From: an uncultured Nitrosopumilales archaeon
Lineage (GTDB): Archaea; Thermoproteota; Nitrososphaeria; Nitrososphaerales; UBA57
Assembly (NCBI GenBank): GCA_964644785.1
Contig: CAZXXP010000004.1
Location: forward strand, 1 to 35,080
Direction: 5' to 3'
DNA length: 35,080 nucleotides
Below are positions 10,348-33,869 of this stretch, piece after piece. The notes beneath the pieces are model-generated. The model was not told where the DNA came from, did not search any database, and saw only the letters and a program-made list of their open reading frames with translations. Each line of letters begins with the position of its first letter. The first letter of the stretch is position 1. The translations under genes and the position numbers were made by a program.

Positions 10348-11340
10348 TTTCTTGGCATCCTTGATCTCTCTGGCAATTCTCCTTCCCATGCTCATAGGCT
10401 CATCGTAAATCAGGCTAGTGTATGGAGAGCCTGCGATGTACAGGTTGGTCCCCGCAACTATTCTTGCTGAATATTCAAACGTAACAAACTCTGCATCCTC
10501 ATTGTAAATACCTTCGATACAGAAGGGGCCTATCATCCCGGGCGGGACATGCTTCTCTACAGCCTTGACGAATCTCTCGCCCATCTGATAAGCCTCTTCT
10601 AGTAGCGACTCTCTAAGCACTAGCGGGATGTTTCCAACTACAATGTAGGAAGGTAGCAACCCTTTCTGATGCACTGCAGGTATCCTCCCAATCCCGTCGA
10701 CCGTAGTCTCATACCTCCTGTCGATACCAAAGAACTCCAATTCCCGCTTCAATGGAGAGTAGAAGTACTGGAAGTATACTGGAACGCCTACAACATACTC
10801 CTGAATGAATATGGGTGTTTTTTTGTCGACGATGCCCTTCTTCTGCAGCTCTTTCAAATTCTTCCAGTACGACTTTTCATCGTTTGCAAGGAAATAACCT
10901 AAACCTCCTTTGGCTCCAGGCAGTTTAGCGATAACCAAACTGTCAATCTTGTCTGGCGTTGAAAATGTCTTTGGAGAACGTAATTTGGCCGCTCTAGTAA
11001 GCTTCTCCTTCAGTTCCCTGTCGGCTTCCCAGCGGAGCATGTTCCTATTGCCGAATATCGGGACATCCAATTCATTTTCAATCTTCTCGATCCCAACTTC
11101 AGAAATCAATGTGCCATGAGGAATTATTATCGAGTTCCTTTTTTTTAGAAATGTAATATTCTTTGGTTCCGTAATGTCTGCAAACTTGTCCAAAACAAGA
11201 TAGTCATCTATGAACTTGAACCTTCTGTAGAATTTCTCCCTCCTCTTCTGGGTTACAACTAGAGTCCTGAAACCTTCGTCCTTTGCACCCTTCAGAACCT
11301 GCAGTGCACAGTGAGAGCCCAATGTCGCGATTGCAACCAT
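10324..11340 (-). CDS. purP: 5-formaminoimidazole-4-carboxamide ribonucleotide (FAICAR) synthetase PurP, paralog 2
   Basis: IATLGSHCALQVLKGAKDEGFRT and PIFGNRNMLRWE motifs, followed by an ATP-grasp-like C-terminal half typical of archaeal PurP. Confidence 0.8.
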   Translation of the reverse strand: MVAIATLGSHCALQVLKGAKDEGFRTLVVTQKRREKFYRRFKFIDDYLVLDKFADITEPKNITFLKKRNSIIIPHGTLISEVGIEKIENELDVPIFGNRNMLRWEADRELKEKLTRAAKLRSPKTFSTPDKIDSLVIAKLPGAKGGLGYFLANDEKSYWKNLKELQKKGIVDKKTPIFIQEYVVGVPVYFQYFYSPLKRELEFFGIDRRYETTVDGIGRIPAVHQKGLLPSYIVVGNIPLVLRESLLEEAYQMGERFVKAVEKHVPPGMIGPFCIEGIYNEDAEFVTFEYSARIVAGTNLYIAGSPYTSLIYDEPMSMGRRIAREIKDAKKSPDRLLT

Positions 11341-13792: not shown

Positions 13793-15816
13793 TAATCAGA
13801 AACCTCAAACTTGAAAATATCAGAAGCTATGGTGAAGCGGAAGTAAGCTTTCCTCTAGGTAAAACCCTCTTTGAAGGCGACGTAGGTTCTGGCAAGTCAA
13901 CAATTCTGATGGCCATCGAATTTGCCCTTTTTGGCCTAGGTTCTGAAAGGGGCGCTGCACTTTTGCGCACTGGAGCTTCTAAGGGAAAGGTAATTTTGGT
14001 CTTCGAAGTTGATGACAATGAATACAGCATTGAACGCAGCCTTGTCAGAAAAGGAGGAGTGATTAAACAAATCGAGGGGAGAATCATATCTCCAAATGGC
14101 GAAGTCATGGACTGTTCTCCTACCGACCTAAAAGAGAAGGTTCTCAAAATACTGAACTTCAACGAACCGCCTAGTCCCACAGCCGGGAGCTTCATCTACC
14201 GCTACGCAATATTTACTCCTCAAGAAATGATGAAAGACGTTCTGTTCTTGGATGTTGACGGGAGATCCCAAACATTGAGAAAGGCGTTCAGAATAGAGGA
14301 CTACAAAATAGCAAGTGAAAATGCTGGTATTCTGGCAAGTAAGATCAAAGATAAAACCATATGGATAGAAGCGCAGTACTCGAACCTCGCAGAGCTTCTT
14401 GTCCGTGTTGATGAAAAAGGTAAAGAGATTAGCGGGGCAGAAAAATCCCTCGCAGAATTCAACGCTTCGAAAAATGACATAACAAACGATCTGAAAGAAT
14501 TCGAAGACGGAAAAAAGTCTCTTCACAACGACCAGGCGAAACTGAACAAGTACGAAGGCGAACTGATGCCACTGCGAAAGTCAATTAATGAGAAAAAACA
14601 GCAGATGATTGAAGATCAGGACGAAATGAAGCTTACAGAAAATAAACTTGGTGGATTGCAGAGCAAGATGAAAGAGCTTGAATTAGAAAACCCTGCAGAA
14701 AGAACATCTAAAGAAATAGAAGAGGAAATTGGGGATTTAAGAGAAAGAAGGGAGAAACTTCTGCCCATAAAGGCAGAGATAGCCTTGAAGAAGTATGACT
14801 ACGGTTCAATCTTAAAGAGTGGCAAATGCCCCACCTGCGACAGGCCTATAGTATCAGGCAAGTTTGCAGACGAAGTTAGGCGGAAGGAGATTGAAGAGGG
14901 GCATGTACAGCAAGAGCTTGACACTTGCAGAATAACGCTAAAAGAACTAAATGGATTGCTTGGGAAGAAACGGGATTACGAGGGGGCTCAGAAGTATTTG
15001 CGGCAGCATAAAGAGCGTATGAATGACTACGCATCAGAGATACGGAAACTCAACAATGGTATTACAGTTGCAAGTAAAGAAATTGAGAATGCAGAAAGCC
15101 GATTGCACGATCTTGAAAAGAGCCTCAAGGACCTCGAACCAGTTTCTGCAAAGCTAGAGGAATTAGATCGAAGAATTGTTGATACTAAAGAAAAACTAGA
15201 CAGCATAAAGCAAGAGATTACTGAAACAACAACAAAAATTCTCCTCTGGAAAAAAGATCTACAAGCCCTGCAGAAGCAAATTCAAGAGTGCAAAGAGCTG
15301 CAGAAACGTGCGGAAACCCTCAAGGAATACCGTATCTGGCTAGAAGATTATTTCGTACCATGTTTGGATGTAATAGAAAAACAAGCTCTGCTCAACATAA
15401 ACCAAGAGTTCAATGCAAGCTTCCAGAAATGGTTCGCCATGCTAATTGATGATACAGGTAAAGAAGCAAGAGTGGATGAAGCTTTCACACCCATAGTCCA
15501 GCAGGATGGCTACGAGCAGAACATCTACTATCTTAGCGGAGGAGAAAGGACCAGCGTTGCGCTTGCATACAGACTTGCACTGAATACTATTGTGCAGAAA
15601 GTTTCTGCTGGAATGAATTCCAATCTGTTAATCCTCGACGAACCAACCGACGGTTTCAGCAAAGAACAGCTTGCCAAGGTAAGGGATGTTCTCGACGAAA
15701 TTCAGAGCCCCCAGGTGATCATAGTCTCACATGAAAAGGAGCTCGAGAGCTTTGCAGACCAAGTCTTCAGAGTGACAAAAATTCAAGGAGAATCGAAGAT
15801 CTTGCCTGGACCCTAG
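13789..15816 (+). CDS. rad50: DNA repair ATPase Rad50 (short, 675 aa)
   Basis: Walker A GDVGSGKST, central zinc hook CPTCDRP, ABC signature LSGGERTSVALAYRLAL, Walker B LLILDEPTDG, H-loop VSHE. Coiled-coil composition lies between the ATPase halves. Confidence 0.9.
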   Translation: MIIRNLKLENIRSYGEAEVSFPLGKTLFEGDVGSGKSTILMAIEFALFGLGSERGAALLRTGASKGKVILVFEVDDNEYSIERSLVRKGGVIKQIEGRIISPNGEVMDCSPTDLKEKVLKILNFNEPPSPTAGSFIYRYAIFTPQEMMKDVLFLDVDGRSQTLRKAFRIEDYKIASENAGILASKIKDKTIWIEAQYSNLAELLVRVDEKGKEISGAEKSLAEFNASKNDITNDLKEFEDGKKSLHNDQAKLNKYEGELMPLRKSINEKKQQMIEDQDEMKLTENKLGGLQSKMKELELENPAERTSKEIEEEIGDLRERREKLLPIKAEIALKKYDYGSILKSGKCPTCDRPIVSGKFADEVRRKEIEEGHVQQELDTCRITLKELNGLLGKKRDYEGAQKYLRQHKERMNDYASEIRKLNNGITVASKEIENAESRLHDLEKSLKDLEPVSAKLEELDRRIVDTKEKLDSIKQEITETTTKILLWKKDLQALQKQIQECKELQKRAETLKEYRIWLEDYFVPCLDVIEKQALLNINQEFNASFQKWFAMLIDDTGKEARVDEAFTPIVQQDGYEQNIYYLSGGERTSVALAYRLALNTIVQKVSAGMNSNLLILDEPTDGFSKEQLAKVRDVLDEIQSPQVIIVSHEKELESFADQVFRVTKIQGESKILPGP

Positions 15817-20113: not shown

Positions 20114-20120
20114 TTAAGGT

Positions 20121-20482
20121 TTAGTCAAACATAACATGCTCGGGCTTTATCTTCAGAATAACACGCTTCTGTTTCTCGGTCTTTTCCACGGAAATCTCTT
20201 TCCCATATATTTCATCGAAAGTTTCTCTATATGCTCATCCGCGCCTGTTGTTGTCGTTTGTACGTCTCTTCCCCTTATTGCTCACATAGTGTAAGGATCC
20301 TTACTGTCAATTATTGAAAGAGCGACTCTGGAGTCGCTTTTGACATTTCTGTACTTAATCCCCTTCCCGGTAGCATTGATCAGTACGAGACCGTCATCGT
20401 AATCGACTCAAACAGGTGTAACCTGTGGAGAACCGTCAGGAATTAGAGTTGCGAGATGGGCGAAGTTCTTACCTTCAACCAT
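20121..20482 (-). pseudogene. Decayed PPOX-class (pyridoxamine 5'-phosphate oxidase-like, probable F420/FMN-binding) gene
   Basis: My translation: MVEGKNFAHLATLIPDGSPQVTPV*VDYDDGLVLINATGKGIKYRNVKSDSRVALSIIDSKDPYTM*AIRGR...EHIEKLSMKYMGK, then a 1-nt frameshift near 20198-20204, then EISVEKTEKQKRVILKIKPEHVMFD*. The in-frame TGA codons at 20408-20410 and 20282-20284 sit where this family has conserved Trp. Confidence 0.7.
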
Positions 20483-20675
20483 CTTTACTGCTCTGATAAC
20501 TAAACTGTGTATGAGTCTAGGTGTTGGGCCGATGAGAAGAAAAGAGGAATCATGCTAATCACATTTAGGTTATCAGAACCATCTTTATTGCTTCTTTTGA
20601 CAGCTTTACCATTTATACTAAATTTATTTCTGTTAGCAGACATATTTTCTGTCAAACAGATTTAAGAACAGGATT

Positions 20676-20989
20676 ATGTGCAAGAGGTAAGCTTTGAGGA
20701 AGACCGGCCATGTAATTTTGCCTCTGCATGGAGGACACACTCCTGAACGGCTGGCGAGCAGAATGAAAAACTGTCGGATGAAATGGTTCGCCAGCTCAGA
20801 AGTGAATACAGCCCTAAGGAGTTCTTAGCTAGGATTTCCGATCCATTCTGGTTTCAGGCTTTCGGAGGTGTTTTAGGTTTTGACTGGCACTCTTGGGGTT
20901 TGATGACTGTCGTTGCAGGAGAGTTGAAAGATGTTCTGCAGTTTGACAGGCATGGTGTAAAGGCTGCCGGAGGGAGTACGCTGAGGTAG
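20676..20989 (+). pseudogene. Truncated, frameshifted DUF763-family gene remnant
   Basis: Frame 1 reads ...GHVILPLHGGHTPERLASRM and has an early TAA. After a shift near 20757-20765 the sequence continues KLSDEMVRQLRSEYSPKEFLARISDPFWFQAFGGVLGFDWHSWGLMTVVAGELK...AAGGSTLR*. The LPLHGG...SDPFWFQAFG..GFDWHS pattern matches the DUF763 N-terminus as I recall it. Those proteins are about 380-400 aa, and only about 95 aa remain here. Confidence 0.55.
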
Positions 20990-21087
20990 ATCCGTTTAGA
21001 GTTTCTCAAGCTAGCAGAACGATACAAACTAATTCCCAGAAATGAGGGGATTTACACACCAATACGTTTGGTGAATGAACTTCGAAA

Positions 21088-21097
21088 GTATATATCA
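21088..21097 (+). promoter_or_regulatory. TATA-like box (GTATATATCA, preceded by purine-rich CGAAA) for the FtsZ-like operon
   Basis: Centred about 27 nt upstream of ATG 21119, which implies a leaderless first gene. The downstream genes instead use short gaps, and one has an SD (GAGGT 22057-22061). Confidence 0.35.
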
Positions 21098-21118
21098 TAA
21101 GCTAAGGAACAAGGCTCG

Positions 21119-22063
21119 ATGACCTTACAGAGAAGACTCGGCGTTACAGGAATAGCAACCATAGCAATTACTCTGTTTCTTATTTCACTACCTCATTCTT
21201 ATTCGCAAGGGCCTACACCTGCAATAATCTCTGACTTTACTGTAAGAGATCCCAACGGGAACGATGTAACTAACAAACCTCTCGTAGCAGGAGGCACGTA
21301 CATGTTCTCATTCTCCGTCGCAATAGGAACTACATTAACTGACCAGATAATAATGTCAACTAGCCTTGAAAAAGTCGGAGACAGATATTGGACGCTTGAA
21401 AACAACTACCAAGGTGTCGATACAAATTCTTGGCAGCCAGGAGGCTCGAGAGTGGCGTTCAAGGCTATTCAGGGTACTCCGAAGTTTACCCTCGCAGGAA
21501 AGATTAACTCGAACATGACGGTAGAGATCGTAAAAGACGGCAAAACCACACATTTTCCGGTCAAGGTTCCAGTCCTAAGTATAGCTCTCCAGTCAACACA
21601 AAATGTTTTGGATCAAAAAATCATGAATGTCACAGACCAAGCAATAATTCAGTACCAAAACACACTGAACACTAAGCAGAACCTTTTGGCCGGTAGCCAG
21701 ACAATACCGCAATATGCTACACTTGCGCAGGGTATTATTGAACAAGCGCAGGCACTAGCCAACGTAGGCTATGTGGAAGACGCGACAAAGATTCTATCTG
21801 TAATACCTTCGTCAGGCCTGCCATCTCCTCCTGGCGTAGAATCCACTTTTCTCTACCTTGCGATAGGAATAGGGGTTGTAGCAGCGATATTCGCAGTCAT
21901 GTTCCTGAGAGCCAATTCAGGCAAATCCGTTATTGTAAGGCAGGCTGACGAAGAGGCCAAGAAGTTAGATGTCCTTCTTGTGAAGGCAAATAGAATAGAC
22001 AAAAGCCTTGCTATGGAGATTGAAACCGTTAAGAAAAAGCTTGAGGACCTGACAAAGAGGTAA
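21119..22063 (+). CDS. Type-I membrane protein: signal peptide, extracellular beta-rich and helical domain, one TM, about 50-aa cytoplasmic coiled-coil tail
   Basis: N-terminal GIATIAITLFLISLPHSYSQ is signal-like. The TM segment is FLYLAIGIGVVAAIFAVMFL near aa 243-262. The tail EEAKKLDVLLVKANRIDKSLAMEIETVKKKLEDLTKR is heptad-like. No family recognised. Confidence 0.6.
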   Translation: MTLQRRLGVTGIATIAITLFLISLPHSYSQGPTPAIISDFTVRDPNGNDVTNKPLVAGGTYMFSFSVAIGTTLTDQIIMSTSLEKVGDRYWTLENNYQGVDTNSWQPGGSRVAFKAIQGTPKFTLAGKINSNMTVEIVKDGKTTHFPVKVPVLSIALQSTQNVLDQKIMNVTDQAIIQYQNTLNTKQNLLAGSQTIPQYATLAQGIIEQAQALANVGYVEDATKILSVIPSSGLPSPPGVESTFLYLAIGIGVVAAIFAVMFLRANSGKSVIVRQADEEAKKLDVLLVKANRIDKSLAMEIETVKKKLEDLTKR

Positions 22064-22068
22064 CCGAC

Positions 22069-24798
22069 GTGGCAAGCACACCAAAAAAATATCTGAGTTC
22101 AATCCAACTCGTAGGTTTGGGTGGTACGGGGGTAAACACGATAGAGGCTTTCATAAAGAACAGGAGAGGACTCCTTCCTCTTCTGAAGAAAGAAGGTATC
22201 AGAGTTTCCATGCTGGCTCTGGATGTTGCCGATCATGACATACGGAGTCTTGAAGGGGCTTACAAAGAGTTAAGGGAGGAAATGAAGACACAAGGAATAC
22301 CAGCAGAGAAGATCGATCTCATTGCCAAGACGGTAAAGTTTCCTACACCAGAATCGATGTTCGACTTCATTTCGCGCTACCCGGAATATTTGGAGAGAGA
22401 GGGTGCAAGGAAGCCCAAAGACTATACACCTTGGCTCTCCTCATCATTGGAGATTCCCCCTCTTGCAGGAGGAGTTGGCAGAAAAAGGGCACTCTCAAAA
22501 GCCATCTACGGGTTGAACTATTATCACCTAAAACTGGTGGAGAATCACATGGACTCCTTCAAGGAACACGTCTTTTCATCTACGATTCAGCCTGTCATTT
22601 TCATAATATATGGAATTGGAGGAGGCACTGGTAGCGGAATAATTCCAGACTTTGCGAGACACCTCAGGCATAAGGTTGGCAGCGGCGTTCCAATAATAGG
22701 CATTGCAATATTGCCGTGCGCAGGCGACGACCCTCCAGCCAAAGGTTCTGCCTCTTACGCTTCGCTTTTGGAGCATGAACTGCTGATAGAGAGATCTAAG
22801 AATAACTTCGTGACGCAGAATTATGGAGATACCTACCAGAACCCGTTCACAGCACTACTGATGATGCCTTTGGGACCTGCTTACGGCAGGACAGGGAGTG
22901 TAGTAGATGCGAGGATGTTGATTGACGATGCGATGGTAGACATACTCATGAAGTCTTTGAACTTTGACCTTGCCGACCTCTTTAACAACATAGGCTCAAA
23001 TGTAGATCTTTCGGGGAACTGGGTCCATATAATATCAACGCTGAAGGTTTCTTACCCAGTAGCGGAGTTCATCGACATTACAAAGATATATCTGAAGAAA
23101 TTAGACAGGATAAGAGACCTCCGCAGGGAGAAGAAGGAGGTATGGACTGGTTCAGCAAAGGATGGCAACGGAGGAATCTACGGGATACTGAAGGCCAACT
23201 TTGACGAGCTTACAAACATATACAAGCAGATTCTAATAGAGAAGAACGCCTACGACGAAAAAACCTTCGAGAAAGAACGTGCAAACTTCATTGCCGAGGG
23301 CAAGTCGATCGAGTCTGACTTGATAATGCACCTGAAGGGCGCAGAAGAGTCCATACGCATCCAGGTCAATGAGCTTGCGAAGGCCGTACTTTCCATAGGC
23401 ATGGATGCTCCAGATGGGACGATAGAGGCGAGGATACGCAACCTTGTTGAAAACGTCGTTGAAATGGCATCAGTAATTTCGAAAAACTATCAGAAGTTCC
23501 AAGCATCTGCAAATGACATTGCAGAAGATTTGAGGGGTAGCCTCCCAAGCGCACAACAGCTAACTCACAGGCAATCCCAAATTCTCAACGATACCATCGA
23601 CTTCACAGAGCTACTCGATGGCTACATAACTGGTTTGAGGCTGTACTTAGATACCAGTGCCTTTGCAGACAAGCTGGCAAAGTTAGTCGCAAGGGCGGAG
23701 AGGACAGAAGCCAATCAGGAACTGCTACGCAGGGTGCAGAAGATAATGAACCCCGAACTCGTAGTACTCTTGACACTCTTATCATCCCTATTCACTCCTA
23801 TGACTTCTGAAATCAAAACTGTGGATGCAAGGCTTAGCGATGCAAGGTTGATCAGAAAGGTGCTAGCGGAGAATGTGGAGAAGACAAAGGCGCACCTAGA
23901 GAATCTAGAAATGAAGAAGCGCAGCAGAGAAGGCGAGAAGGATAGGATAGACAAGGATCTAAGCAAGATACGCATTGCTTTTATCGCCGGAAACAAGAAA
24001 AGCTATCTGGAGACCAAGTCCAGAGAGTTTGAGCACGAGTTAAGGGTGATAGCTTCAGAGATAGAAACAGTGAACAGTGAGCTCAGTAGAGGTCAGACTA
24101 AACTTAACGAATATGTTGGGATAGAGAAGAAGTTCGATATTAATGCTGAGCTTAGGAAGGCAATTGCTGAAATTACAGAGCTCAACAATGTGTATTATGA
24201 TAAGATGAACCAAGTGATGAAGGATAGAGGCTACTATGATAAGGTCGCTGAGCTTACCGAGAGCGAGCAGCTGAAGATCATGCAGAGGATCCTTTCAGAA
24301 GAAGAGACCTCTCTGACAGACGAGAACATATTGAAGGAGATCATAGATAGGAAGCACTTCAGAGATTATCTTGTAGGCGCATTGGGAATATTCAGAATTC
24401 CTGCAACTCTGGGTTTGACGGCAGAATACAGAACAGATTACCTCTGGGTTACCGTGGTCTCGCCAAGAGGGATATGGGATAAGGATCTCGATTCAGATGT
24501 CAAGACGATACTTTCAGGCTATATCAAGCAGGACGCTTCAAAGACCATCTACATACGCGAAGTCGATTCCGACGATCCATGGACATTGAGATTCCTGATA
24601 ATCGCTGCGAAGGCTAAGGTGACCATGCTTGAAGGCTACAAAGACATGAAGTCGATTTACGAACAGAGTGTACCATCAGAACGTATTCTATCCCACTCAT
24701 TCCTACTTGAACAAGGAGTGCATGCAGTTGAGTCGGGGAAGCTGGCACCCAACAGCCTATTAGATAGGCCATCACGAGCAGAAGAACTCAAGGAATAA
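22069..24798 (+). CDS. Giant FtsZ/tubulin-superfamily GTPase (909 aa) with extensive coiled-coil region
   Basis: IQLVGLGGTGVNTIEAF (T1, compare FtsZ IGVGGGGGNAV); LAGGVGRKRA (T3-like); GIGGGTGSG (exact tubulin/FtsZ signature, nt 22618-22638); LNFDLADLF (T7 NxDxxD, nt 22960-22977). About aa 340-760 is charged and heptad-rich. GTG start with GAGGT SD 7 nt upstream. Confidence 0.8.
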   Translation: MASTPKKYLSSIQLVGLGGTGVNTIEAFIKNRRGLLPLLKKEGIRVSMLALDVADHDIRSLEGAYKELREEMKTQGIPAEKIDLIAKTVKFPTPESMFDFISRYPEYLEREGARKPKDYTPWLSSSLEIPPLAGGVGRKRALSKAIYGLNYYHLKLVENHMDSFKEHVFSSTIQPVIFIIYGIGGGTGSGIIPDFARHLRHKVGSGVPIIGIAILPCAGDDPPAKGSASYASLLEHELLIERSKNNFVTQNYGDTYQNPFTALLMMPLGPAYGRTGSVVDARMLIDDAMVDILMKSLNFDLADLFNNIGSNVDLSGNWVHIISTLKVSYPVAEFIDITKIYLKKLDRIRDLRREKKEVWTGSAKDGNGGIYGILKANFDELTNIYKQILIEKNAYDEKTFEKERANFIAEGKSIESDLIMHLKGAEESIRIQVNELAKAVLSIGMDAPDGTIEARIRNLVENVVEMASVISKNYQKFQASANDIAEDLRGSLPSAQQLTHRQSQILNDTIDFTELLDGYITGLRLYLDTSAFADKLAKLVARAERTEANQELLRRVQKIMNPELVVLLTLLSSLFTPMTSEIKTVDARLSDARLIRKVLAENVEKTKAHLENLEMKKRSREGEKDRIDKDLSKIRIAFIAGNKKSYLETKSREFEHELRVIASEIETVNSELSRGQTKLNEYVGIEKKFDINAELRKAIAEITELNNVYYDKMNQVMKDRGYYDKVAELTESEQLKIMQRILSEEETSLTDENILKEIIDRKHFRDYLVGALGIFRIPATLGLTAEYRTDYLWVTVVSPRGIWDKDLDSDVKTILSGYIKQDASKTIYIREVDSDDPWTLRFLIIAAKAKVTMLEGYKDMKSIYEQSVPSERILSHSFLLEQGVHAVESGKLAPNSLLDRPSRAEELKE

Positions 24799-24812: not shown

Positions 24813-27212
24813 ATGACTGCCAGATCTAAACGCGTCTCCCTAGACTTTCTACGTAGGAGGATTGAATCTGAAAAGGAGGACCTTGCAGACCCCCTAGTAA
24901 AGGAAGCGCACTTTCGTAGACTGCTACTTCGTATATTGACAGCTTCACTATTCTTTGCTAATACTGCACTATTCACGATTCTGCTTCCTTTCTACCCAGT
25001 CGGCCTAGCTCTAATGTTGGCTCTTGTAGCGGGCATAATAGGATACGTCTTTCCTGCTGCAGGTTTCTTTACCAGTGTCATGTTAAGCATACCAGCTTTG
25101 GCATACCAGACTGGTGTGCCGCTGTGGTGGCTAGCAATTTTGGCGATATTTGCAATCGGTTTTTCTGTCAGAATTTTCTTTGACTCTAACAGTGCGTTCA
25201 CAGCTTCAATAGGGATGCTGGTCGCTGCAGTAACTCTTACGCCTGCTTACTTTATCATAATCCCTATCATAATAGCTGTTGGATTATTCCGTCAGAAAGA
25301 GAAAGTTTTTGCCCCGCTTGCTGTCGTGATAATGTTTCTGATTTTTTTCATACCTATTCACCATGCTGAATTTTCTTCCATTCTGAAAGCTTCGCTTGGA
25401 GAAAAGATCCAGACGATGCGAGCCGAGGAGATTTTCAGCTCAATGAACAGTCTTGCAATTCCCCTGTTCCATCAACTCAGTATCAGCGTTAGACCTGCAC
25501 CAAAATCATTCGATCTGCCAGCGTTGTCAGAAGCGTTTGGCTCCGCCTTCCAGCCCAGCGGATTTTTCCATCCTTACCTCTTTCTCATGATCGACAGGCT
25601 GATCATATTCTTCTATCCCATCTTGTTAACAGTGACACTATCAGTTTCTTTAGTCATCGAAAGGTTTTGGCATTGGTTAAGAGATAGGAACGCTGCCGTA
25701 GCACCCAGTATAAAATTCTCCAGCATTCTCACCATATTCGTTGGAACGGCAGTTTTCATACTTCCGCTTGTCGCCTTATCCCCAGCGCTGAGATATCTCA
25801 CATCAATAGATAGCGCCATGCCTTCGGAAGCTATTACTGGCAGCAACGCTCTGGCTGCTCTGATAGCGTCTGCAGTTACTATTGGGTTTTTAGTAACGAT
25901 AGTTTCGCAATGGTCGTTAAGGAGAAACTCCATAGCTAATACGGCTTCAGCTGTATTAGGAAAAAGCAAGACGTTATTCCCCATACTCGAGAATCTAGTC
26001 AAATATGTCTCCAGTGTAAATCAAAATAGTCAAGGGATCAGCATATCCGAAGAGGTTGCACAAGTAGCTATGGCGGATGAAGATCTCAGGCTCACTCAAA
26101 AGAACATAGAGACCTTACGCCCTGTGGTTATGGCGCAAAGACTTGCAAGGCTCAACAATATAGGTCAGGATCTACCGGGAATCAAGGCATCCGTAAACCT
26201 CAAGCTCGGTAATTACTACATTGACAAGGTAGCCAAATACAACTCGATGGTAGAACAGGTTACAGGATTTGGGATGCAGGGCTTGAAGAAGATCACTGAA
26301 CCTACAACCGATCGAATTAGCGAAATGGCAGACGATCTGCTGAGAGTGCAGCAGACATTAAACGAGATGTATTTCGAGCTTGCTGAGAAGGTCTTAGAAG
26401 CCACTAAAGGTGTTATCGAAACGATAAACCTTGAGTTTGAACACATAGATACAACTTCGGTTGAAGTGAGCAGGAAATTCCTCGATGAGAAGAAGGGTGA
26501 AGTTGCAGTTGAGTATTTAATTAATACACTGATAGAGCTGGATGCAAGGTACGGGAAGTTATTGCAGCAGATCGTTGAGAGGGAGGATTCCATTACAATC
26601 GGGATAAGAAAGATATACTCTTTTCAAATGCTCCCTATGTTCGAAACTCTGGGTAAGGCCGAAACATCCTCGCAGTCTTACGGAGCGATAGTTAAGCTTG
26701 GTGAAGCAGTAAACCGTTCAGGTACTGTAAGTATGACATACCTTGCAGAGACGATGACTAGGTTTCAAATCATTCAGGACGGCCTCAAAGTAATATCCTC
26801 CGAACTTATGTTGCACATTGGGGAGCTTGAAGGGCTCAACGATGCAAGAGCTTCGGGCTTTAACTGGGGTAAAGATACAAACGTCATGATCGAGCTGGAA
26901 ACGGCGATAAAAGCAATGCAGAGTAGGGAAAAGCTTGGAATAGAGGAGAGGATGGCAAATGCGGAAGTTGCCTCAAAGCATATAGAGCAGGCTACGAAGA
27001 CAGTTTCTCAGTACCTAGTGATGAGCGAACTCATACTGTTATGTCCCTTGCTTGACCAAATAATTGATTCCAAGCTCAGGAGCTCCGGCGCGGTGAAACC
27101 TGAAGAAATACCTGTTGCACAGAAGTATGCGAAGCAGTTGCTGAGGCTATACGCGTCTAGGCACGCTGATTCTGCCTATGATATTATGCTGAATAGGTTG
27201 CAGCCTAAATAG
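24813..27212 (+). CDS. Polytopic membrane protein (about 10 TM, aa ~35-370) with a ~430-aa C-terminal all-helical soluble domain
   Basis: Successive hydrophobic helices after a basic N-terminal segment (RSKRVSLDFLRRR). The C-terminal half is hydrophilic and Leu/Glu/Lys-rich. It starts 14 nt after the FtsZ-like gene. No family recognised. Confidence 0.65.
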   Translation: MTARSKRVSLDFLRRRIESEKEDLADPLVKEAHFRRLLLRILTASLFFANTALFTILLPFYPVGLALMLALVAGIIGYVFPAAGFFTSVMLSIPALAYQTGVPLWWLAILAIFAIGFSVRIFFDSNSAFTASIGMLVAAVTLTPAYFIIIPIIIAVGLFRQKEKVFAPLAVVIMFLIFFIPIHHAEFSSILKASLGEKIQTMRAEEIFSSMNSLAIPLFHQLSISVRPAPKSFDLPALSEAFGSAFQPSGFFHPYLFLMIDRLIIFFYPILLTVTLSVSLVIERFWHWLRDRNAAVAPSIKFSSILTIFVGTAVFILPLVALSPALRYLTSIDSAMPSEAITGSNALAALIASAVTIGFLVTIVSQWSLRRNSIANTASAVLGKSKTLFPILENLVKYVSSVNQNSQGISISEEVAQVAMADEDLRLTQKNIETLRPVVMAQRLARLNNIGQDLPGIKASVNLKLGNYYIDKVAKYNSMVEQVTGFGMQGLKKITEPTTDRISEMADDLLRVQQTLNEMYFELAEKVLEATKGVIETINLEFEHIDTTSVEVSRKFLDEKKGEVAVEYLINTLIELDARYGKLLQQIVEREDSITIGIRKIYSFQMLPMFETLGKAETSSQSYGAIVKLGEAVNRSGTVSMTYLAETMTRFQIIQDGLKVISSELMLHIGELEGLNDARASGFNWGKDTNVMIELETAIKAMQSREKLGIEERMANAEVASKHIEQATKTVSQYLVMSELILLCPLLDQIIDSKLRSSGAVKPEEIPVAQKYAKQLLRLYASRHADSAYDIMLNRLQPK

Positions 27213-27213: not shown

Positions 27214-28272
27214 CTATACGCTTGCTGCTTTTGTCAGGTAGTCTTGCAGTTCATCAAGCAGTAGATTGGATATTCTCTGCGAGATGTCAGATAAGTTCTT
27301 GGTAGTAATTGCATTGTTGACAATTTCAACAAGGTGCTTGCCTATCTTGGTTTCGACGACTGGGAGAAGTCTCCTAATGCTGCGAATGGCTTGATCTATT
27401 TCTCTTTGTTTACCGAGTTCAGTACTTACCAGCAATTCGTTTACGGCGAGTGTCAACAGCATGAAATAGGAGAGAGAAGACCAGTTCGGGTGCATTTCTC
27501 TGGCATATTGAGTCCACTTCTTGGATATCGGGGTCTTTGAATGGACTGTTGTCCCAAGCTCTGCGAACAATTCAGAAACTGTTTCGTTTACAGCCAGCGG
27601 AGAGTGGGATTTTATCGCCTCAGAAAAATTGACCGTCACCTGTCCAAGGTTTGTCTCTGTACCCTTAATCAATCCCTCTGCCGCGGTCAAAATACTCTTT
27701 GCATGAACTTCTGCATTCCTCCATTCTCCCTGCCCTATTTCGTTCAACATATCGCGTGTTGGAGAAATCATTGACCATATGTTTATCATTGATTCGTAGA
27801 GATAAACTACGAACAGTAAGTCTTCCCTCTCAGCCTGCTTCTTCTTCTGCACTTCTTCTTCTAATCTCCTCTTGCTGGCCTGCAGAATCTCCGAGACCTG
27901 ATTCAATATACTCAAAGCACTACTACTGCTATTTGTAACGAGAACTAGGCTCGCAGGTTTTGCATTCTCCGTGTAGCTGACCTTGATAGAAGAATTCCCT
28001 TCTTGACTGATACCATTTATCTGAGAATAGTTCAATGCGATAACCGTTGCAAGTTTGTTAGAAAATAGTGAAGCTTTCTGTTCTACGATAATCCTCCTCT
28101 CGGTTAGCGTAAGCTTAACCTTGCCTCTGCCCTGAAGTTTTATGTCATCGCTTATTGCAATGATTCTTTCTGGTTCCACTTTACATTGCCGTTCATGTGG
28201 CATAAGGTAAAAAGCATATCTCAGGAAATGGTTCTTATCCTCAGCCGTTACAGATGTGTGTATGGAAGGCAC
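27214..28272 (-). CDS. Hypothetical protein: N-terminal PH/GRAM-like beta-sandwich plus helical C-terminal domain
   Basis: ERIIAISDDIKLQGRGKVKLTLTERRIIVEQ...VIALNYSQINGISQE...SIKVSYTE...ASLVLVTN is followed by the helix LSILNQVSEILQASKRRLEEE. This is the strand/helix order of PH-like folds, read by pattern only. An alternative start is ATG 28203. Confidence 0.45.
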   Translation of the reverse strand: MPSIHTSVTAEDKNHFLRYAFYLMPHERQCKVEPERIIAISDDIKLQGRGKVKLTLTERRIIVEQKASLFSNKLATVIALNYSQINGISQEGNSSIKVSYTENAKPASLVLVTNSSSSALSILNQVSEILQASKRRLEEEVQKKKQAEREDLLFVVYLYESMINIWSMISPTRDMLNEIGQGEWRNAEVHAKSILTAAEGLIKGTETNLGQVTVNFSEAIKSHSPLAVNETVSELFAELGTTVHSKTPISKKWTQYAREMHPNWSSLSYFMLLTLAVNELLVSTELGKQREIDQAIRSIRRLLPVVETKIGKHLVEIVNNAITTKNLSDISQRISNLLLDELQDYLTKAASV

Positions 28273-29596
28273 TCAACAGGAAACCGTCCTCATTCCATGT
28301 CCCGTAGGACATAAAGCCCTCACGGGTATGACGCAATGCCCAAGATGCGGCCTTCCAATAATTTTGTATGAGAAAGAGCTGATAGATATTGTAGACAGGT
28401 TCAAGACCCTCTCACAAAACTTTGCGAAGGTTCAGCAGTTGTTTCCAATTGGTGTAGGCCTATGGGGCTCCAAGCTCCTACTAGCAACAGTCGCTTCACA
28501 TGATATCAGGCTGACAAAGTTTTCAACAATTGGTGCTTCGACTACAGATATTCAGATGTTCGCATCTGCAAAACAGAAGATGATACCCAGAGACAATGTG
28601 GAAAACATTCTGCGCAAGATAAATTACCCTCTGAAGATTGTTGCAGACATGAGAGGAGGTATATGGAAGAGAGCGGAGATAACTGCAAGGAACGATTCAG
28701 CTCTTGCGGATAAAATAAGCATTCTCAGAATTAATGATATAAAAGAAGAGCAGGTCGCTTTCTTCATGGGTTCTTTGAGCGAGGGAATTGTGGCTGGGGT
28801 TACACCATTCCTTTGTTCCGCTGCTAGAGAAAACAATCCTAATGTCTTAACCATATTTCTCTTGACTCTGCCAGCTGAAGACACGTCTGAAGAAGCGCAG
28901 TTCAATGCCTACTGTGGCCTTGCTATGCTTCTCCAATCGGGCATGCATACCGGAATAATTATGCAAGAATCAGCCCTTAAGGCCCTTAAGGGGATTTCAA
29001 GATCTGGTGCAGAATTGAATGCAGATTTCCTACTCCCTACGATGTGTGACATATTGCTCGCGATTGGTGTCGAAGGCCTAGCAGAGATATCCCATATTTC
29101 GCAGTCGTTCAGACTGCAGGTCCTATCGCCCGCCTTTGCTTATGGGGCAAGCTATGAAATTTACGGAAGCCTTGCAAATATCGTAGAGTACGCGATGTAC
29201 AAAATCTTGGTGCCAATAAACCCGGAAAACGTCATTGCTGCAGTTACCATCGCAAGAATTCCAAGAAGACTCCTTGAAATAGTCGGTAAGGATGCCCTCG
29301 AAGAGCAGTTTACAAGTTGGACTAGGCGCCGCTTCCCGGCAATAAGAGGAAGTCTGCTTAGAATCATTACAAAAGAAGAACCGTCAGACAGAATAGATGC
29401 AATTCTCTTACTAGGTGGCAAGAACCTAGAAGCTATTACCAATTCGATCAAAGATGGCTACATCGAGTTCAAAGCTAACTTGGATACAATGGACCTATGG
29501 GAGGAATATTCGATAACTACTGACGAATTGAAGAATATCGAGGAGTCAATATTAAAATACGACAAGAGAATAAGCGCGCTTCTCAAGAAGAAGTAG
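28256..29596 (+). CDS. Zinc-ribbon protein with a putative nucleotide-site-degenerate FtsZ/tubulin-like domain
   Basis: N-terminal CPVGH-x11-CPRCG. Then FPIGVGLWGSKLL (T1 position), RGGIWKRAEI (T3 position), AFFMGSLSEGIVAGVTPFLCSAARE (T4 position, GGGTGSG lost), LTIFLLTLPAEDTSEEAQFNAYCGLAMLL (T5/H5 position) and IDAILLLGGKNLEAI (C-terminal subdomain). Order and spacing follow FtsZ. The probable start is ATG 28262. Confidence 0.5.
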   Translation: MCMEGTQQETVLIPCPVGHKALTGMTQCPRCGLPIILYEKELIDIVDRFKTLSQNFAKVQQLFPIGVGLWGSKLLLATVASHDIRLTKFSTIGASTTDIQMFASAKQKMIPRDNVENILRKINYPLKIVADMRGGIWKRAEITARNDSALADKISILRINDIKEEQVAFFMGSLSEGIVAGVTPFLCSAARENNPNVLTIFLLTLPAEDTSEEAQFNAYCGLAMLLQSGMHTGIIMQESALKALKGISRSGAELNADFLLPTMCDILLAIGVEGLAEISHISQSFRLQVLSPAFAYGASYEIYGSLANIVEYAMYKILVPINPENVIAAVTIARIPRRLLEIVGKDALEEQFTSWTRRRFPAIRGSLLRIITKEEPSDRIDAILLLGGKNLEAITNSIKDGYIEFKANLDTMDLWEEYSITTDELKNIEESILKYDKRISALLKKK

Positions 29597-32500
29597 ATTT
29601 TCTTTGGAAAACCCTTGAGAGCACTAATTGTGTTGTTATCGAAATTGCAGCCACTGCTATTATTATGCCTGTAGCAAATGCAGCAATGGTTGCGTCTGAG
29701 CGTACTAAGTTAATCATGAAGCTAAGGTCTCTGTCAGTTATTTCGGGGCTGACAACCTGCTGCTCCCCCCTGTATTTTATCGTGAACTGATACTCGCCAG
29801 GAATTAGGTGTTCATACAATGGATTATCACTCTCCTTTATCTCTTTATGCGTAGGTCCCTCCATCGTCAGCTCAGCATCGGGGATTACCAACCCAAATGG
29901 ATCTCTAACGGTAAATGAAACGTCGAATGTTTTCAGATATGCCACAACATTCCTGGTGCTGTGGCTGTACATCAATGAGATTACCATTCTATCCCCCAGA
30001 TTGGTGAACTCTGGTTTGGCGAGCTTACCGTCCAACAACACAACTATCTTATCAGCAGAAGAGCGCAGGTCATCGATTAGGAGGTTGCTGGGAACAGTTA
30101 TGTTGAGGACCCCCACGCTGCCTTCCTTTCCAACAAGCGTGAGCTTAACAGCTCTAACATCAGTTGATGATAGAGCGCTCGTAACTGTTGAGTTCGATAT
30201 AATCGTAATCAATTTATCAGAATAACTAACATGCTCGACCTGTCCTGTTTGAAGCTTTCCATCGCTACGCAACTGCACAGTATGTTCTATCGTACTCCTC
30301 TCCAAGAAACTTCCTCCCATCGAATCGATTATGGGGAATACTGGAGATACTTCCATAACCGAAAATGTATAATTTGTTCTTCTGGGTCCGCTAACAAAAA
30401 TCGGATATTTGGATAGTGGAGTAGATGAACTCACAAGGACCATTTGGCCTTCGGCTTTCAGCGCTCTGATTTCAGGTGCTTGAGGGTCTACAGGTGTCCA
30501 TATAGCCGCATATGGTAAACCCACGATAAAGTCTCTACCTGCATCTGTCCTCATGACTATGTTGGTGTCACCTCTCGTATATACTGTAAAACCATCAAGG
30601 GGTGGGTACATCGTCGCCTTGTAACTCTCAGTTATATCTACAGCCCTTCCTTCATAAGTAACAACTTCAATGGGACCTCCCCACTTGGGGCTCAGCTCAT
30701 AATACATCTTGGGATCCTTGCCTAGATTCTGTATGCCCAAGGGGTATCTTGTTGGGGATATCTCGAACAGACCTTCTGCAGGGTCTACAAATAGCCAGTC
30801 CCTGTCTACTCTGAACTCGATCCAGGCATGCAGTGTAAGATATGGTATCTCTTGCAATGGTGACATCTCCATGATTCCAATTAAAGGTCTTACCGGTATA
30901 TCCACCGATCGCAAGAGGCCGCCATAGAATACAACAATGACCCTCGAGTCACCGGTTACCTTCTGGTTGCTTAGTGCTCCTCCCGTAGCCTGCAGTTCCG
31001 ATGCTATATGTGCTATACTTTGAGGCTTAATGTTGGTTGCTGGCTCGTAATGCTGAACGACAAAGGTGAATAGGGCCCTTGCCTTGTCTACGGGGCTTGC
31101 AATCTGAGGTACATTTGCTACCGCAAGTATGTTCTCAGCGAGTGCCTTTACTTCAGGTGTAGTTGCCATAAGGTCGTTCAGCACTGCAAGATTTTCAACA
31201 CTAACTGCCTTACCAATAGCCCGAAGGTTATCCCTGCTTCGACTCGAAAATATCTTTAGAGGGACAGAAATACTATCTGCAGAGTCTGCAGTCTCGTTTA
31301 TCTTCGCTTCAAAGGCCCCGGTTCCATTTTTGAGGAACCTTAGCTCATATGCAATAACATAGGACTGCCCAGACTGAAAGTTCAGCACTATGCTCTTGGG
31401 ATTCACGCTTATGCCATCGAAACTTGATTGTGCGTCTAGCCTTACCTCGCCCGGCCTGTCATTCGTATTTGCTATCTTCAGCCAGATATAGGCAGATTCT
31501 CCTTGGAACTCCGTCTTTGATATGGTCGTATTTGCCCAGACTATACCGACCTTCGGTAGAAACACGTAGTTTGCGGTTAGATTGAAAGGTCTATCTATTC
31601 TAATGGAAACTAACAGACCCGTGAACCTGTTCCCGTCCACAGTCCAGAACCTGAACGAATAGTCCCTGACCCTCTTTGTTGTGGCAAATTCAGTGGTTAA
31701 ATCTGTATCATGCCACTTGTTTCCGTTAGATATTTCGGCCAAACTCTTCGGCTCGGTGGCTGCATAAATGAAGAATTGTAGTGTATAAGTTGATGTTACG
31801 ACCTTTGGGCCGTTCATCAGGACTGTAGTGTTCGTTTTGGAATCTGAAATATTCCCCATCCAGCCTCTGAAATCGTATCTCCTGTTCTCAGCTATGTTCA
31901 CTATCTGCGGAGTTGAGATACTGGCCTGTGTATTGTTGTCGAACCATCCGGCTCCCAATGATGGTGGGGGAGAAATGGGTAGAATGCTCCTCACCGTTAG
32001 AAAGTACTGTGTCTTGAACTCAGCTTTATATGTTCCCTGAGAGTTTATCGTCAGAATCCTTGCCTGCGTAGTTGTCCCATCTGACCACCTCGTAAAGACA
32101 TAGCGTATTCCAGAGGTTCCATTGACTATCTGGTTTGGCACGCCTAATGTATGGATCTCGCCCTGCACCCATCTATATTGTTTCGGAAGATCTGTAGGTT
32201 GAATGAGTGCCCCATCAACAATGAATGAGGAAACTCGTGGCGATGAATCTATAGTTACAGTTAGAAGTGGAAGTATGACGAGAACTGCCTGCGCAGACCT
32301 CCTTACAATGCCGCTGTTTGCCTCAATCAAAAAGAGGAAGTTCCCTGCACCAGAAGACTCAGAAGCCCTGACGCTCAGCAAGGCATTTCTTGTTACACCT
32401 ACTTCCAAGCTAAAGGAGTTGGGAACTATTGAGATTTCGACATCGCTGGGAATACCCGTGGACCTCATGTCTATCAGACCGGAGAAGCCTCCCCGTGAAA

Positions 32501-33869
32501 CTACGGAGATATTGAAAAGGCCTTGCTTCCCTTGCGCTATTACAAGATTTTCTGGTCTGATCGAAATCAGAAAGTCCCTTACAGGTATGTTCAGTCTCAG
32601 CGTTGAGGACTTTACCAGAGGTGTTCTAGTGGCTGTAATTGTAAGGTCTAGAGATCCTGGAGCTGCTGTGAGGTTAAGCGAGAGTGTCAGCGTCGCTGTT
32701 ACTACGCCGTTGGGAGGAGGCGTAACTTCAGGAGGGTTGATACTGGCGAACAATCCAGGCACTAGCGTAGGAAGGGATAAAGTAACGGCAGAGTTGAAAC
32801 CTTCCGTCGACTGCACAACTATCTGGAACGTCCTTGTAGAACCCAAAGTCATAGTTACATCGGATGGAGCTATTGAAACTACGAAGTTCCCAGCAATGTT
32901 CAATATTAGTGTATTTGTTCCTGTAATGTAGCCAGCCCTTGTAGCTGTCACGCTTATCCTAGCAGATATTGTCAGTGCAGATAATTGAATCGGAGCCCCC
33001 TCGGAGGTAACTCTAATCGTTATTATTGAGATTTTGGACACGACCGCCGGGTTTGGAATTGCGTCTATTGCTATAACAAGCCCTGGCAACGGCTTTACCA
33101 TAATAGTAACAAGAAAAGAGTGAGTTATCTGAGGGGAACCCGGATATATACCTACGACGAAACCACTATAGGTGCCTGGAAGCGCGGTAAGGGCAGCATC
33201 TAGTGTTAGCGTTGCCGATATCCAGCTCTGCTTGGGAACCAAGACAGACCCGGTGAGGGTAACCAAGACACCTGGAGCCTGATTGTTCCATATCCAAGAA
33301 AGTTGGATCTGACCGTTGAAGTTTGAGATAGAGCTAATATTCACAAAGGCTGAGGCCGATGCCTGCTGTCTTACTTCAACCGTGCTAGGAGATACCGAAA
33401 TCGCAAAGTCACCCACATAAAGAGTAAGCGTCACGTCATTTGTACGGACTGTGGACGCGGTATCATTCGCAAACTTCCCGTTAGCTATGATAATGTAAGT
33501 TCCCGGGGGAGTGCTAGTTGTCGTGCTGATAGTAAGCGTAACAATGGCATTGAGTCCCGTTCCACCCGTAGGCACGGTAAGCGACGAAGGCGAGAAAACG
33601 GCAGAGGACAAAGGTATCCCTGACGGACTAATACTTACGACATTCAAGTTGAGTGTCGGTCCCAAAGGCGGAGGATCGTATTTCTGTCCCACCACTGTCA
33701 CAGTAAACTGTTTTTGAGCACCTTTGGGAATCTCTGCCGAAGTAGAATCAGGCGTAAGCGTTATTGGCGGACCGGCCTCGACATGTGGGAGAAAAGCGAA
33801 ATATGCAATAGCAAGGGCTAGACTAGTGACAAGTAAAACATTGCCGCTAGTTACCTTCGGATGCACCAC
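29583..33869 (-). CDS. Very large (1428 aa) cell-surface protein: signal peptide, repeated Ig-like/beta-sandwich domains, transglutaminase-like core, C-terminal TM anchor
   Basis: N-terminal LLVTSLALAIAYFAFLPHVEA. There are at least 3 repeats of the pattern F.(I/V)S(V/I).P..v....G.....v.V.S..GF.G...L. InlB-B-repeat-like units are present (Y.LTV...GAGWF...RYDFRGW). The TGase-like core reads GDSRVIVVFYGGLLRSVDIPVR...HAWIEF...FVDP (nt ~30780-30960). The C-terminal segment is AAFATGIIIAVAAISITTQLVL. GTG start. Confidence 0.8.
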   Translation of the reverse strand: MVHPKVTSGNVLLVTSLALAIAYFAFLPHVEAGPPITLTPDSTSAEIPKGAQKQFTVTVVGQKYDPPPLGPTLNLNVVSISPSGIPLSSAVFSPSSLTVPTGGTGLNAIVTLTISTTTSTPPGTYIIIANGKFANDTASTVRTNDVTLTLYVGDFAISVSPSTVEVRQQASASAFVNISSISNFNGQIQLSWIWNNQAPGVLVTLTGSVLVPKQSWISATLTLDAALTALPGTYSGFVVGIYPGSPQITHSFLVTIMVKPLPGLVIAIDAIPNPAVVSKISIITIRVTSEGAPIQLSALTISARISVTATRAGYITGTNTLILNIAGNFVVSIAPSDVTMTLGSTRTFQIVVQSTEGFNSAVTLSLPTLVPGLFASINPPEVTPPPNGVVTATLTLSLNLTAAPGSLDLTITATRTPLVKSSTLRLNIPVRDFLISIRPENLVIAQGKQGLFNISVVSRGGFSGLIDMRSTGIPSDVEISIVPNSFSLEVGVTRNALLSVRASESSGAGNFLFLIEANSGIVRRSAQAVLVILPLLTVTIDSSPRVSSFIVDGALIQPTDLPKQYRWVQGEIHTLGVPNQIVNGTSGIRYVFTRWSDGTTTQARILTINSQGTYKAEFKTQYFLTVRSILPISPPPSLGAGWFDNNTQASISTPQIVNIAENRRYDFRGWMGNISDSKTNTTVLMNGPKVVTSTYTLQFFIYAATEPKSLAEISNGNKWHDTDLTTEFATTKRVRDYSFRFWTVDGNRFTGLLVSIRIDRPFNLTANYVFLPKVGIVWANTTISKTEFQGESAYIWLKIANTNDRPGEVRLDAQSSFDGISVNPKSIVLNFQSGQSYVIAYELRFLKNGTGAFEAKINETADSADSISVPLKIFSSRSRDNLRAIGKAVSVENLAVLNDLMATTPEVKALAENILAVANVPQIASPVDKARALFTFVVQHYEPATNIKPQSIAHIASELQATGGALSNQKVTGDSRVIVVFYGGLLRSVDIPVRPLIGIMEMSPLQEIPYLTLHAWIEFRVDRDWLFVDPAEGLFEISPTRYPLGIQNLGKDPKMYYELSPKWGGPIEVVTYEGRAVDITESYKATMYPPLDGFTVYTRGDTNIVMRTDAGRDFIVGLPYAAIWTPVDPQAPEIRALKAEGQMVLVSSSTPLSKYPIFVSGPRRTNYTFSVMEVSPVFPIIDSMGGSFLERSTIEHTVQLRSDGKLQTGQVEHVSYSDKLITIISNSTVTSALSSTDVRAVKLTLVGKEGSVGVLNITVPSNLLIDDLRSSADKIVVLLDGKLAKPEFTNLGDRMVISLMYSHSTRNVVAYLKTFDVSFTVRDPFGLVIPDAELTMEGPTHKEIKESDNPLYEHLIPGEYQFTIKYRGEQQVVSPEITDRDLSFMINLVRSDATIAAFATGIIIAVAAISITTQLVLSRVFQRKSTSS

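Follow-up and report, generated by a model that had tools for sequence, protein, structure and literature searches.

A FtsZl1-family GTPase with a predicted stalk-split C-terminal subdomain, encoded in a recurrent gene cassette of an uncultured Nitrosopumilales archaeon

The FtsZl1 family of the tubulin/FtsZ superfamily was defined in 2010 for proteins of approximately 1000 amino acids (aa) from diverse bacteria and archaea, which combine an FtsZ-like N-terminal domain, an extended coiled coil and a C-terminal globular domain (Makarova and Koonin, PMC2875224). That study also described inserts between T1 and T4, aligned the family no further than H5, identified neither T6-H7 nor an FtsZ-like C-terminal domain, and inferred from gene context a role in membrane remodelling (PMC2875224). 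Typical operon partners are a von Willebrand factor A (vWA)-domain protein, a Ser/Thr kinase, a divergent P-loop GTPase and an OmpA-like protein, which are frequent without being universal. These proteins (Pfam Tubulin_2) were used only as an outgroup by Santana-Molina et al. in 2023 (PMC9871819). A 2024 preprint on Borg extrachromosomal elements reported that proteins of approximately 1057 aa from Borgs, Halorientalis and Methanoperedens match CetZ2 (4b45) "only partially, involving the start and ends", with a long coiled coil between the CetZ-like ends (10.1101/2024.11.05.622173). Here, we analyzed a 35,080-nucleotide (nt) stretch, hereafter the window, of an uncultured Nitrosopumilales archaeon (contig CAZXXP010000004.1), and in it the gene w909 (22069-24798, + strand), which encodes a 909-aa tubulin-superfamily GTPase of the FtsZl1 family. 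A preliminary description of the window, made from the letters alone, had proposed an FtsZ-like GTPase whose C-terminal subdomain is split by a coiled-coil insertion, and had supposed this architecture to be unknown in the tubulin superfamily. It is not, as the architecture was described for FtsZl1 in 2010 (PMC2875224) and its split nature was noted in the Borg preprint of 2024 (10.1101/2024.11.05.622173), and our results overturn neither account.

The w909 open reading frame (ORF) runs for 909 codons from a GTG start without interruption and begins 5 nt past the stop codon of the same-strand gene w314. The reading frame first proposed is confirmed. An identical 909-aa protein (P0001) is present in the public protein collection, and a database search returned 645 homologs of approximately 900 aa. 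Conservation was assessed on a family alignment of 83 sequences (37-88% identity) and on a larger set of 175. The T1 stretch IQLVGLGGTGVNTIEAFI occupies aa 12-29, one residue before the position given in the preliminary description (13-30), with its core GLGGTG at aa 16-21 (G16-G21, nt 22114-22131). T3 (AGGVGRKRA, aa 133-141, nt 22465-22491, core AGGVGR at 133-138), the T4 G box (GGGTGSG, aa 184-190, nt 22618-22638) and T7 (NFDLAD, aa 298-303, nt 22960-22977, directly after the helix at 278-296) lie exactly where they had been placed and are conserved in both sequence sets, and T5 reads PCAGDD (aa 216-221). Residues G16, G18, G21, G134, G135, R138, R140, F299 and D300 are invariant among the 83 sequences, and conservation reaches 90% or more at G184-G190 and D303; the 175 sequences confirmed this pattern. 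T1 and T3 are 116 residues apart, with two extra helices at 94-110 in the structural model presented below. This spacing exceeds that of E. coli FtsZ by approximately 65 residues; the insertion first noted here has this length rather than the ~80 residues suggested. The T7 loop of E. coli FtsZ is NVDFAD (PMC3684127), and NFDLAD fits the same NxDxxD pattern.

At the sequence level, PF13809 (Tubulin_2) matched aa 14-221 (E = 4.1e-13, 49.8 bits for a cut-off of 27), covering only profile positions 2-211 of 356, and PF00091 (Tubulin) matched aa 154-251 (E = 1.6e-9). Close relatives are named "tubulin-like domain-containing protein" at NCBI. The canonical FtsZ equivalog TIGR00065 scored 21.3 bits, far below its cut-off of 295.2, and the Pfam family FtsZ_C was matched neither by the whole protein nor by its C-terminal region. 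Searching the PDB with the sequence gave local matches only, to CetZ and FtsZ around T1 and T4, the best being CetZ 4b46 (E = 0.002) over aa 137-219 (H3-T4-S5). An exhaustive profile search covered 1.84 billion representatives and yielded only 256 proteins at E ≤ 1e-3, with approximately 14 full-length clusters. By these criteria w909 is neither a canonical FtsZ nor a CetZ; within the tubulin/FtsZ superfamily it belongs to FtsZl1 (Pfam Tubulin_2), and the w909 group is a new subfamily of this known family.

The three-part FtsZl1 layout was found in w909 as an N-terminal domain, a helical region at 331-781 with significant heptads and a conserved globular region at 782-895. Like the family's type protein Huta_2051 of Halorhabdus utahensis, w909 has an N-terminal domain with the GGGTG[ST]G box, inserts between T1 and T4, a long central helical region and a C-terminal globular domain. 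Further common traits are a length of ~900-1100 aa, co-existence with other division systems in archaeal as well as bacterial hosts, and gene neighbours rich in membrane proteins. Typical FtsZl1 relatives of ~1070-1095 aa also share the C-terminal H[SA]xLLExG motif of w909. In contrast to the 2010 account, H7, T7 and S7 are plainly identifiable in w909, and its C-terminal domain is alpha/beta in our model instead of "mostly alpha-helical". The Borg subfam2487, Halorientalis regularis (A0A1G7LXG2) and Methanoperedens proteins have, going by the preprint's description, the same split layout as that predicted for w909; they are approximately 150 aa longer, are hosted by Methanoperedens elements and haloarchaea, and were presented without analysis of motifs, topology or context (10.1101/2024.11.05.622173).

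To obtain the predicted structure, an AlphaFold2 model of full-length w909 was built on the 83-sequence alignment, and aa 276-909 were modelled separately. The full-length model reached a mean predicted local distance difference test score (pLDDT) of 89.6 and a predicted template-modelling score (pTM) of 0.76. With this model, Foldseek returned 71 PDB matches at E ≤ 1e-3, and the best 50 of the 71 were all CetZ, TubZ, FtsZ or tubulin. CetZ 3zid ranked first (E = 7.6e-7, TM-score 0.50 normalised to CetZ), followed by CetZ2 (4b45, E = 4.0e-6; 0.50-0.52 for the two CetZ structures), TubZ, FtsZ (E of ~2e-5 to 1e-4 for FtsZ/TubZ) and the tubulins. In a viral structure library, phage FtsZ/tubulin proteins were the top matches. 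The tubulin-type assignment of aa 1-340 in the preliminary description thus held under structure prediction and Foldseek comparison; a P-loop or other non-tubulin fold was ruled out for this region, all listed Foldseek matches belonging to the tubulin superfamily.

In the model, the GTP-binding domain (aa 1-275, 22069-22893, + strand) contains strands S1 (11-17), S2 (46-52), S3 (82-88), S4 (175-182), S5 (209-215) and S6 (262-267), with the two helices of the family insert at 94-110 and T3 (133-136) as the sole low-confidence loop. Besides this secondary structure, the invariant residues and the alignment with CetZ and FtsZ over T1 and T4 define the domain. It is followed at aa 276-330 (22894-23058, + strand), in both models and with conserved residues, by the core helix H7 (278-296), T7 (NFD, 298-300), H8 (301-308) and S7 (319-328). 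The models thus support aa 1-330 as a tubulin/FtsZ-type GTPase domain complete with H7, T7, H8 and S7. CetZ, the best structural match, has a similar "ILPxxxD" T5, but unlike w909 it is ~350-400 aa long, has a contiguous C-terminal domain and no stalk, and is only 14-15% identical. FtsZ and TubZ share with w909 the order of T1, T3, T4 and T7 (NxDxxD) and of the secondary-structure elements, whereas w909 differs from them by the ~65-aa T1-T3 insert, a predicted insert of ~450 aa between S7 and S8, and a gene context that is related neither to division nor to plasmid partition.

From aa 331 to 781, the model contains helices only. Beyond them, a strand (792-798), a helix (805-818) and two strands (827-833 and 839-849) follow in the order S8, H10, S9 and S10; these four elements open the post-stalk alpha/beta region (aa 782-895, 24412-24753, + strand), which continues with helices and a small hairpin. 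The whole succession of S7, helices 331-781 and S8-H10-S9-S10 fits the FtsZ order S7-H9-S8-H10-S9-S10. Invariant residues of this region are W793, P799, W803 and W838, together with an HSFLLExG motif at 875-883. In the separate model of aa 276-909, from which the GTP-binding domain is absent (pLDDT 87.0, pTM 0.78), S7 remained a 10-residue DSSP strand (pLDDT ~81-90) while all other strands were post-stalk. DSSP assigns a strand only where it has a hydrogen-bonded partner, and the fragment offers none but post-stalk strands, so that S7 would belong to the post-stalk sheet. Foldseek matches of the fragment were weak (E 0.04-0.2, probability up to 1.0) and mostly to FtsZ, TubZ and CetZ. Matches of ~90-125 columns to IspF (fragment) and RusA (full model, viral library) are supportive only. 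In SCOP, IspF, RusA and the tubulin C-terminal domain share the beta-alpha-beta-alpha-beta-beta "Bacillus chorismate mutase-like" fold.

Shorter relatives add comparative sequence evidence. Actinobacterial "tubulin-like domain-containing proteins" of ~450-590 aa match positions ~5-292(328) and ~776-889 of the w909 profile, with only 28-95 residues between the two blocks, and they carry the same C-terminal motifs, TDY.W..V..P..W and HSxLLExG. Since these short relatives join both blocks almost directly, the ~450 residues of w909 represent an insertion between S7 and S8; this is stated relative to the stalk-less relatives and implies neither gain nor loss of the stalk. Taken with the models, this supports the helical region as an insertion within the C-terminal subdomain rather than a tail, as the preliminary description had suspected and now at the level of prediction. 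The FtsZ resemblance that it had seen in the last ~140 aa applies to secondary-structure topology and fold; the proposed sequence pattern received no statistical support from a profile of aa 720-900. The actinobacterial P0160 family (~500 aa) resembles w909 in the N-terminal domain (E ~1e-57) and the C-terminal block, and differs in having 28-95 residues in place of the stalk, a T7 that is not conserved as NFDLAD, and neighbours (CN-hydrolase, Co/Ni transporters) unlike those of w909.

Several relatives had features of their own. At the actinobacterial loci L084 (7001-10683) and L085 (7001-10733), a 99-aa gene separates two stalk-less Tubulin_2-like genes (506+566 and 538+551 aa, respectively); genes for a CN-hydrolase and for cobalt/nickel transporters (CbtA/CbtB, NicO) lie beside each pair. 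A paralogous branch of the w909 family was found in Bathyarchaeia at locus L003 (10001-12865, P0094), with the similar 947-954-aa proteins P0092 and P0099; paralogs of this type bear a C-terminal extension with CPxC...C motifs resembling a zinc ribbon. Another full-length relative, P0154 (1069 aa; profile positions 12-892, E = 6e-73), ends in a PGF-pre-PGF domain, which is normally found on archaeal surface proteins and is odd for a presumed cytoplasmic GTPase.

The stalk itself (aa 331-781, 23059-24411, + strand), defined by the model and by its absence from the ~500-aa relatives, shows weaker conservation than the domains on either side (mean majority-residue fraction 0.50 vs. 0.63-0.68). 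It is nearly all helix, broken into approximately 14 helices, and significant a/d heptad periodicity occurs only in 452-491 (z = 3.0), 578-633 (z = 4.4) and 641-689 (z = 4.4), so that genuine heptad coiled coil totals only ~110-150 residues. The continuous heptad-like helix read earlier at 340-760 is thus confirmed as to helical content, and as to heptads in the hairpin 578-689 and in 452-491; the rest of that span has no significant periodicity. The hairpin is a predicted antiparallel coiled coil (aa 578-689, 23800-24135, + strand) in which a short loop connects two helices of 56 and 49 residues, corresponding to ~75-85 Å at 1.5 Å per residue. Its tip (634-645) has conserved hydrophobic residues, then G/P and three K/R columns (K/R fraction 0.7-0.9). 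Just before the hairpin lies another conserved hydrophobic stretch, NPELVVLFSLLSSMFxP (561-577), in which E563 is invariant. The sequence of the tip and of this stretch suggests a membrane- or partner-binding end.

We then examined the gene neighbourhood of w909. Relatives were sought in one genome per species and were found in 207 genomes; the best 80 of these came from Nitrososphaeria, Dehalococcoidia/Chloroflexota and Bathyarchaeia, and the closest relatives were Thaumarchaeota/Nitrososphaeria metagenome-assembled genomes (MAGs). Cassette counts are based on 84 loci, which represent three phyla. Directly upstream, w314 (21119-22063, + strand) encodes a protein with a signal/transmembrane segment (7-25), an outside domain, a second transmembrane segment (245-263) and a charged helical cytoplasmic tail of ~50 aa, and a homolog occupies the same position in 77 of the 84 loci. 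Downstream, w799 (24813-27212, + strand) combines eight predicted transmembrane helices (aa 41-364) with a soluble helical domain of ~430 aa (homologs in 67/84 loci). It is followed by w352 (27214-28272, - strand), which encodes a weakly conserved soluble protein (homologs detected in 26/84), and by w446 (28256-29596, + strand), a second tubulin/FtsZ-like protein of 446 aa (73/84). A Pfam scan matched no family in either w799 or w352. None of the published FtsZl1 partners (vWA, protein kinase, P-loop GTPase, OmpA) was found in w314, w799, w352, w446 or the neighbouring w1428; unlike in the published operons, the partners of w909 are w314, w799, w352 and the second tubulin-like protein.

Gene order varied with lineage. 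Thaumarchaeal loci read 314+ 909+ 799+ 352- 446+, plus a convergent w1428, whereas all five genes are co-directional in Dehalococcoidia and the Bathyarchaeia order is 314+ 909+ 446- 799+. In thaumarchaeal loci, the present one included, w352 runs against the other cassette genes, whereas the weakly similar gene of Dehalococcoidia is co-directional; an inversion specific to one lineage seems to have occurred within the cassette. Here, the 5' end of w352 shares 17 nt with the start of w446. The large w1428 gene (29583-33869, - strand), convergent with w446, encodes a membrane-anchored surface protein with an N-terminal signal/transmembrane segment, a transglutaminase-like core and a C-terminal transmembrane segment. 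Thaumarchaeal loci alone have it beside the cassette (12/84), and so its membership is doubtful. What recurs in Nitrososphaeria, Bathyarchaeia and Dehalococcoidia is a cassette that encodes a single-pass membrane protein, a w909-type GTPase, an eight-transmembrane protein and another tubulin-like protein besides the GTPase.

The second tubulin-like protein, w446, matched PF00091 under the cut-off (E = 6.9e-5) and is alignable to Odinarchaeota FtsZ1. Its N terminus has a zinc-ribbon-like CPxGH...CPRCG motif. The Dehalococcoidia orthologs have an intact G box (GGGTGSG), whereas that of w446 itself (GSLSEGIVAG) and of the Bathyarchaeia proteins is degenerate. The thaumarchaeal "FtsZ" of Nitrosopumilus, Nmar_1262, also has a degenerate G box (AGKAGSA) and does not polymerise alone (PMC3684127). 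The w446 box is reminiscent of it; a word-indexed homolog search with w446, aimed at a link to Nmar_1262, gave only 10 close relatives.

We consider it rather probable that w909 is an FtsZl1 GTPase with a complete FtsZ-type core, whose activation subdomain is split by the ~450-aa stalk and which works in a GTP-regulated, membrane-attached assembly. The T7 aspartates are intact, and activation would therefore come from head-to-tail contact with another subunit, either w909 itself or possibly w446. In such an assembly, w909 subunits would bind GTP and join head to tail, each T7 loop completing the active site of its neighbour as it does in FtsZ, CetZ and TubZ; polymerisation-dependent GTPase activity is at this stage only a prediction. 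Each stalk, a helical bundle ending in the ~80 Å hairpin, would point sideways from the C-terminal subdomain, and its tip and/or bundle may touch the membrane, the w314 tail or the soluble domain of w799. With w446 acting as partner or regulator, the whole could amount to a scaffold or remodelling device that is attached to the membrane, regulated by GTP and distinct from cell division.

A number of points weigh against this reading. Both models depend on AlphaFold2 and on one family alignment, and DSSP assignments are the source of the predicted pairing between S7 and the post-stalk sheet. A 22-sequence profile of aa 720-900 matched no FtsZ or tubulin in the PDB and neither FtsZ_C nor Tubulin_C in Pfam; the sole PDB match, to a mitoribosomal protein, was rejected as a spurious helical similarity. 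Mean-field direct-coupling analysis (175 sequences, effective number Meff 82, 523 columns) was underpowered, as its top pairs were mostly lineage-marker columns and the control N-domain strand pairs S5-S6 and S1-S4 were not enriched. In it only 2 of the top 50 coupled pairs, 318-842 and 324-837, indicate S7-S10; their i+j is constant, as for an antiparallel S7-S10 register, and they carry little weight given the limited power of the analysis. The Bathyarchaeia paralog of locus L003 stands without the cassette and adjoins an Orc1/Cdc6 gene. The bulky stalk could hinder protofilament packing, and Makarova and Koonin thought that FtsZl1 proteins might not form filaments (PMC2875224). The literature that we searched shows no experimental study of any FtsZl1 protein.

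A possible, if somewhat unlikely, alternative keeps the split architecture and dispenses with the polymer: w909 would be a long-stalked dimer or switch under GTP control, in function nearer to dynamin-like or SMC-like tethers, perhaps pairing 1:1 with w446 as alpha- with beta-tubulin. Dynamin-like proteins typically have stalks whose tip is directed at the membrane, and bacterial dynamin-like proteins (BDLPs) have a GTPase head, a long helical stalk and a membrane-suited tip and are encoded with membrane partners. Their P-loop GTPase fold is unrelated to the tubulin/FtsZ fold of w909 and there is no homology, so the comparison offers an idea of function and not a classification. The presence of two tubulin-like genes per cassette in 73 of the 84 loci is consistent with such a switch, as are the likewise paired stalk-less relatives of Actinobacteria, the decay of the w446 G box in Thaumarchaeota and Bathyarchaeia with an intact box in Dehalococcoidia, and the failure of Nmar_1262, with its degenerate box, to polymerise alone (PMC3684127). 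However, an invariant T7 aspartate pair is a hallmark of subunit-to-subunit activation, usually in open-ended polymers, and Nmar_1262 is not an established ortholog of w446.

A second alternative, which we judge quite improbable, holds that the FtsZ-like N-terminal domain of w909 carries a coiled-coil tail and, beyond it, an unrelated C-terminal domain that folds by itself, the tubulin C-terminal subdomain being missing. It would agree with the 2010 alignment, which stops at H5 and found no similarity between FtsZl1 C-terminal domains and those of FtsZ or tubulin (PMC2875224), with the end of the Tubulin_2 match at aa 221 and with the aa 720-900 profile, which matched neither FtsZ_C nor Tubulin_C. 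The order of elements argues otherwise, as H7, T7, H8 and S7 clearly precede the stalk and exactly S8-H10-S9-S10 follow it. The 10-residue S7 needs a partner and is kept as a strand when only post-stalk strands are present, the short relatives link S7 almost directly to the same C-terminal block, and the fragment still retrieves FtsZ, TubZ and CetZ without its GTPase domain. That the cassette is instead an accessory, horizontally mobile module, for instance for defence or envelope modification, and no housekeeping cytoskeleton is highly improbable: its patchy spread over Nitrososphaeria, Bathyarchaeia and Dehalococcoidia/Chloroflexota, the 54% identity of w909 to its ortholog in a Dehalococcoidia MAG, an archaeon-bacterium comparison in which the neighbours reach only 20-40%, and the near universality of related proteins in Borg extrachromosomal elements (10.1101/2024.11.05.622173) speak for mobility, but a PADLOC scan of the five cassette proteins matched no defence family, no integrase, transposase or repeat boundary was seen beside the cassette within the window, G+C content is uniform (0.42-0.49), and the flanks are ordinary archaeal housekeeping genes.

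Those flanks, on what is an archaeal contig, include Nre, PAC2, TrmB, PurP and Mre11/Rad50 genes. Two tandem PurP-type (DUF1246/DUF1297) genes lie at 10324-12447 (- strand), and a Mre11-like phosphoesterase and a Rad50/SMC-like ATPase are encoded at 12542-15816 (+ strand). A tRNA-Thr (GGT) at 2416-2490 (+ strand) was the sole find of the Rfam and tRNA scans of the window. The ~1 kb directly upstream of the cassette (20114-21118) has no ORF of at least 70 aa and no Rfam match; a promoter/regulatory region may lie there, or a small gene not yet described.

Within the tubulin/FtsZ superfamily, no branch is more divergent than FtsZl1. Three aspects of the w909 subfamily appear to be undescribed in the papers that we searched: the clear T7 loop, the stalk-less relatives, and the cassette with a second tubulin-like gene that is common to archaea and Chloroflexota. 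A further-reaching interpretation, which we regard as unlikely for now, is that this four-to-five-gene cassette, to which w352 would contribute a small helical protein, encodes a cytoskeletal machine not recognised before, anchored in the membrane and passed between archaea and Chloroflexota, in which a catalytically intact w909 pairs with an archaeal w446 whose GTP site has decayed. If true, the pairing would parallel the division of labour between alpha- and beta-tubulin, and it might explain why divergent thaumarchaeal "FtsZ-like" proteins are inert alone. With an intact pocket and T7, a stalk-split model, stalk-less relatives and compact membrane partners, the w909 subfamily is a clean case of its family. 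It offers an experimental entry to FtsZl1, through which polymerisation, stalk direction and a role at the membrane become testable.

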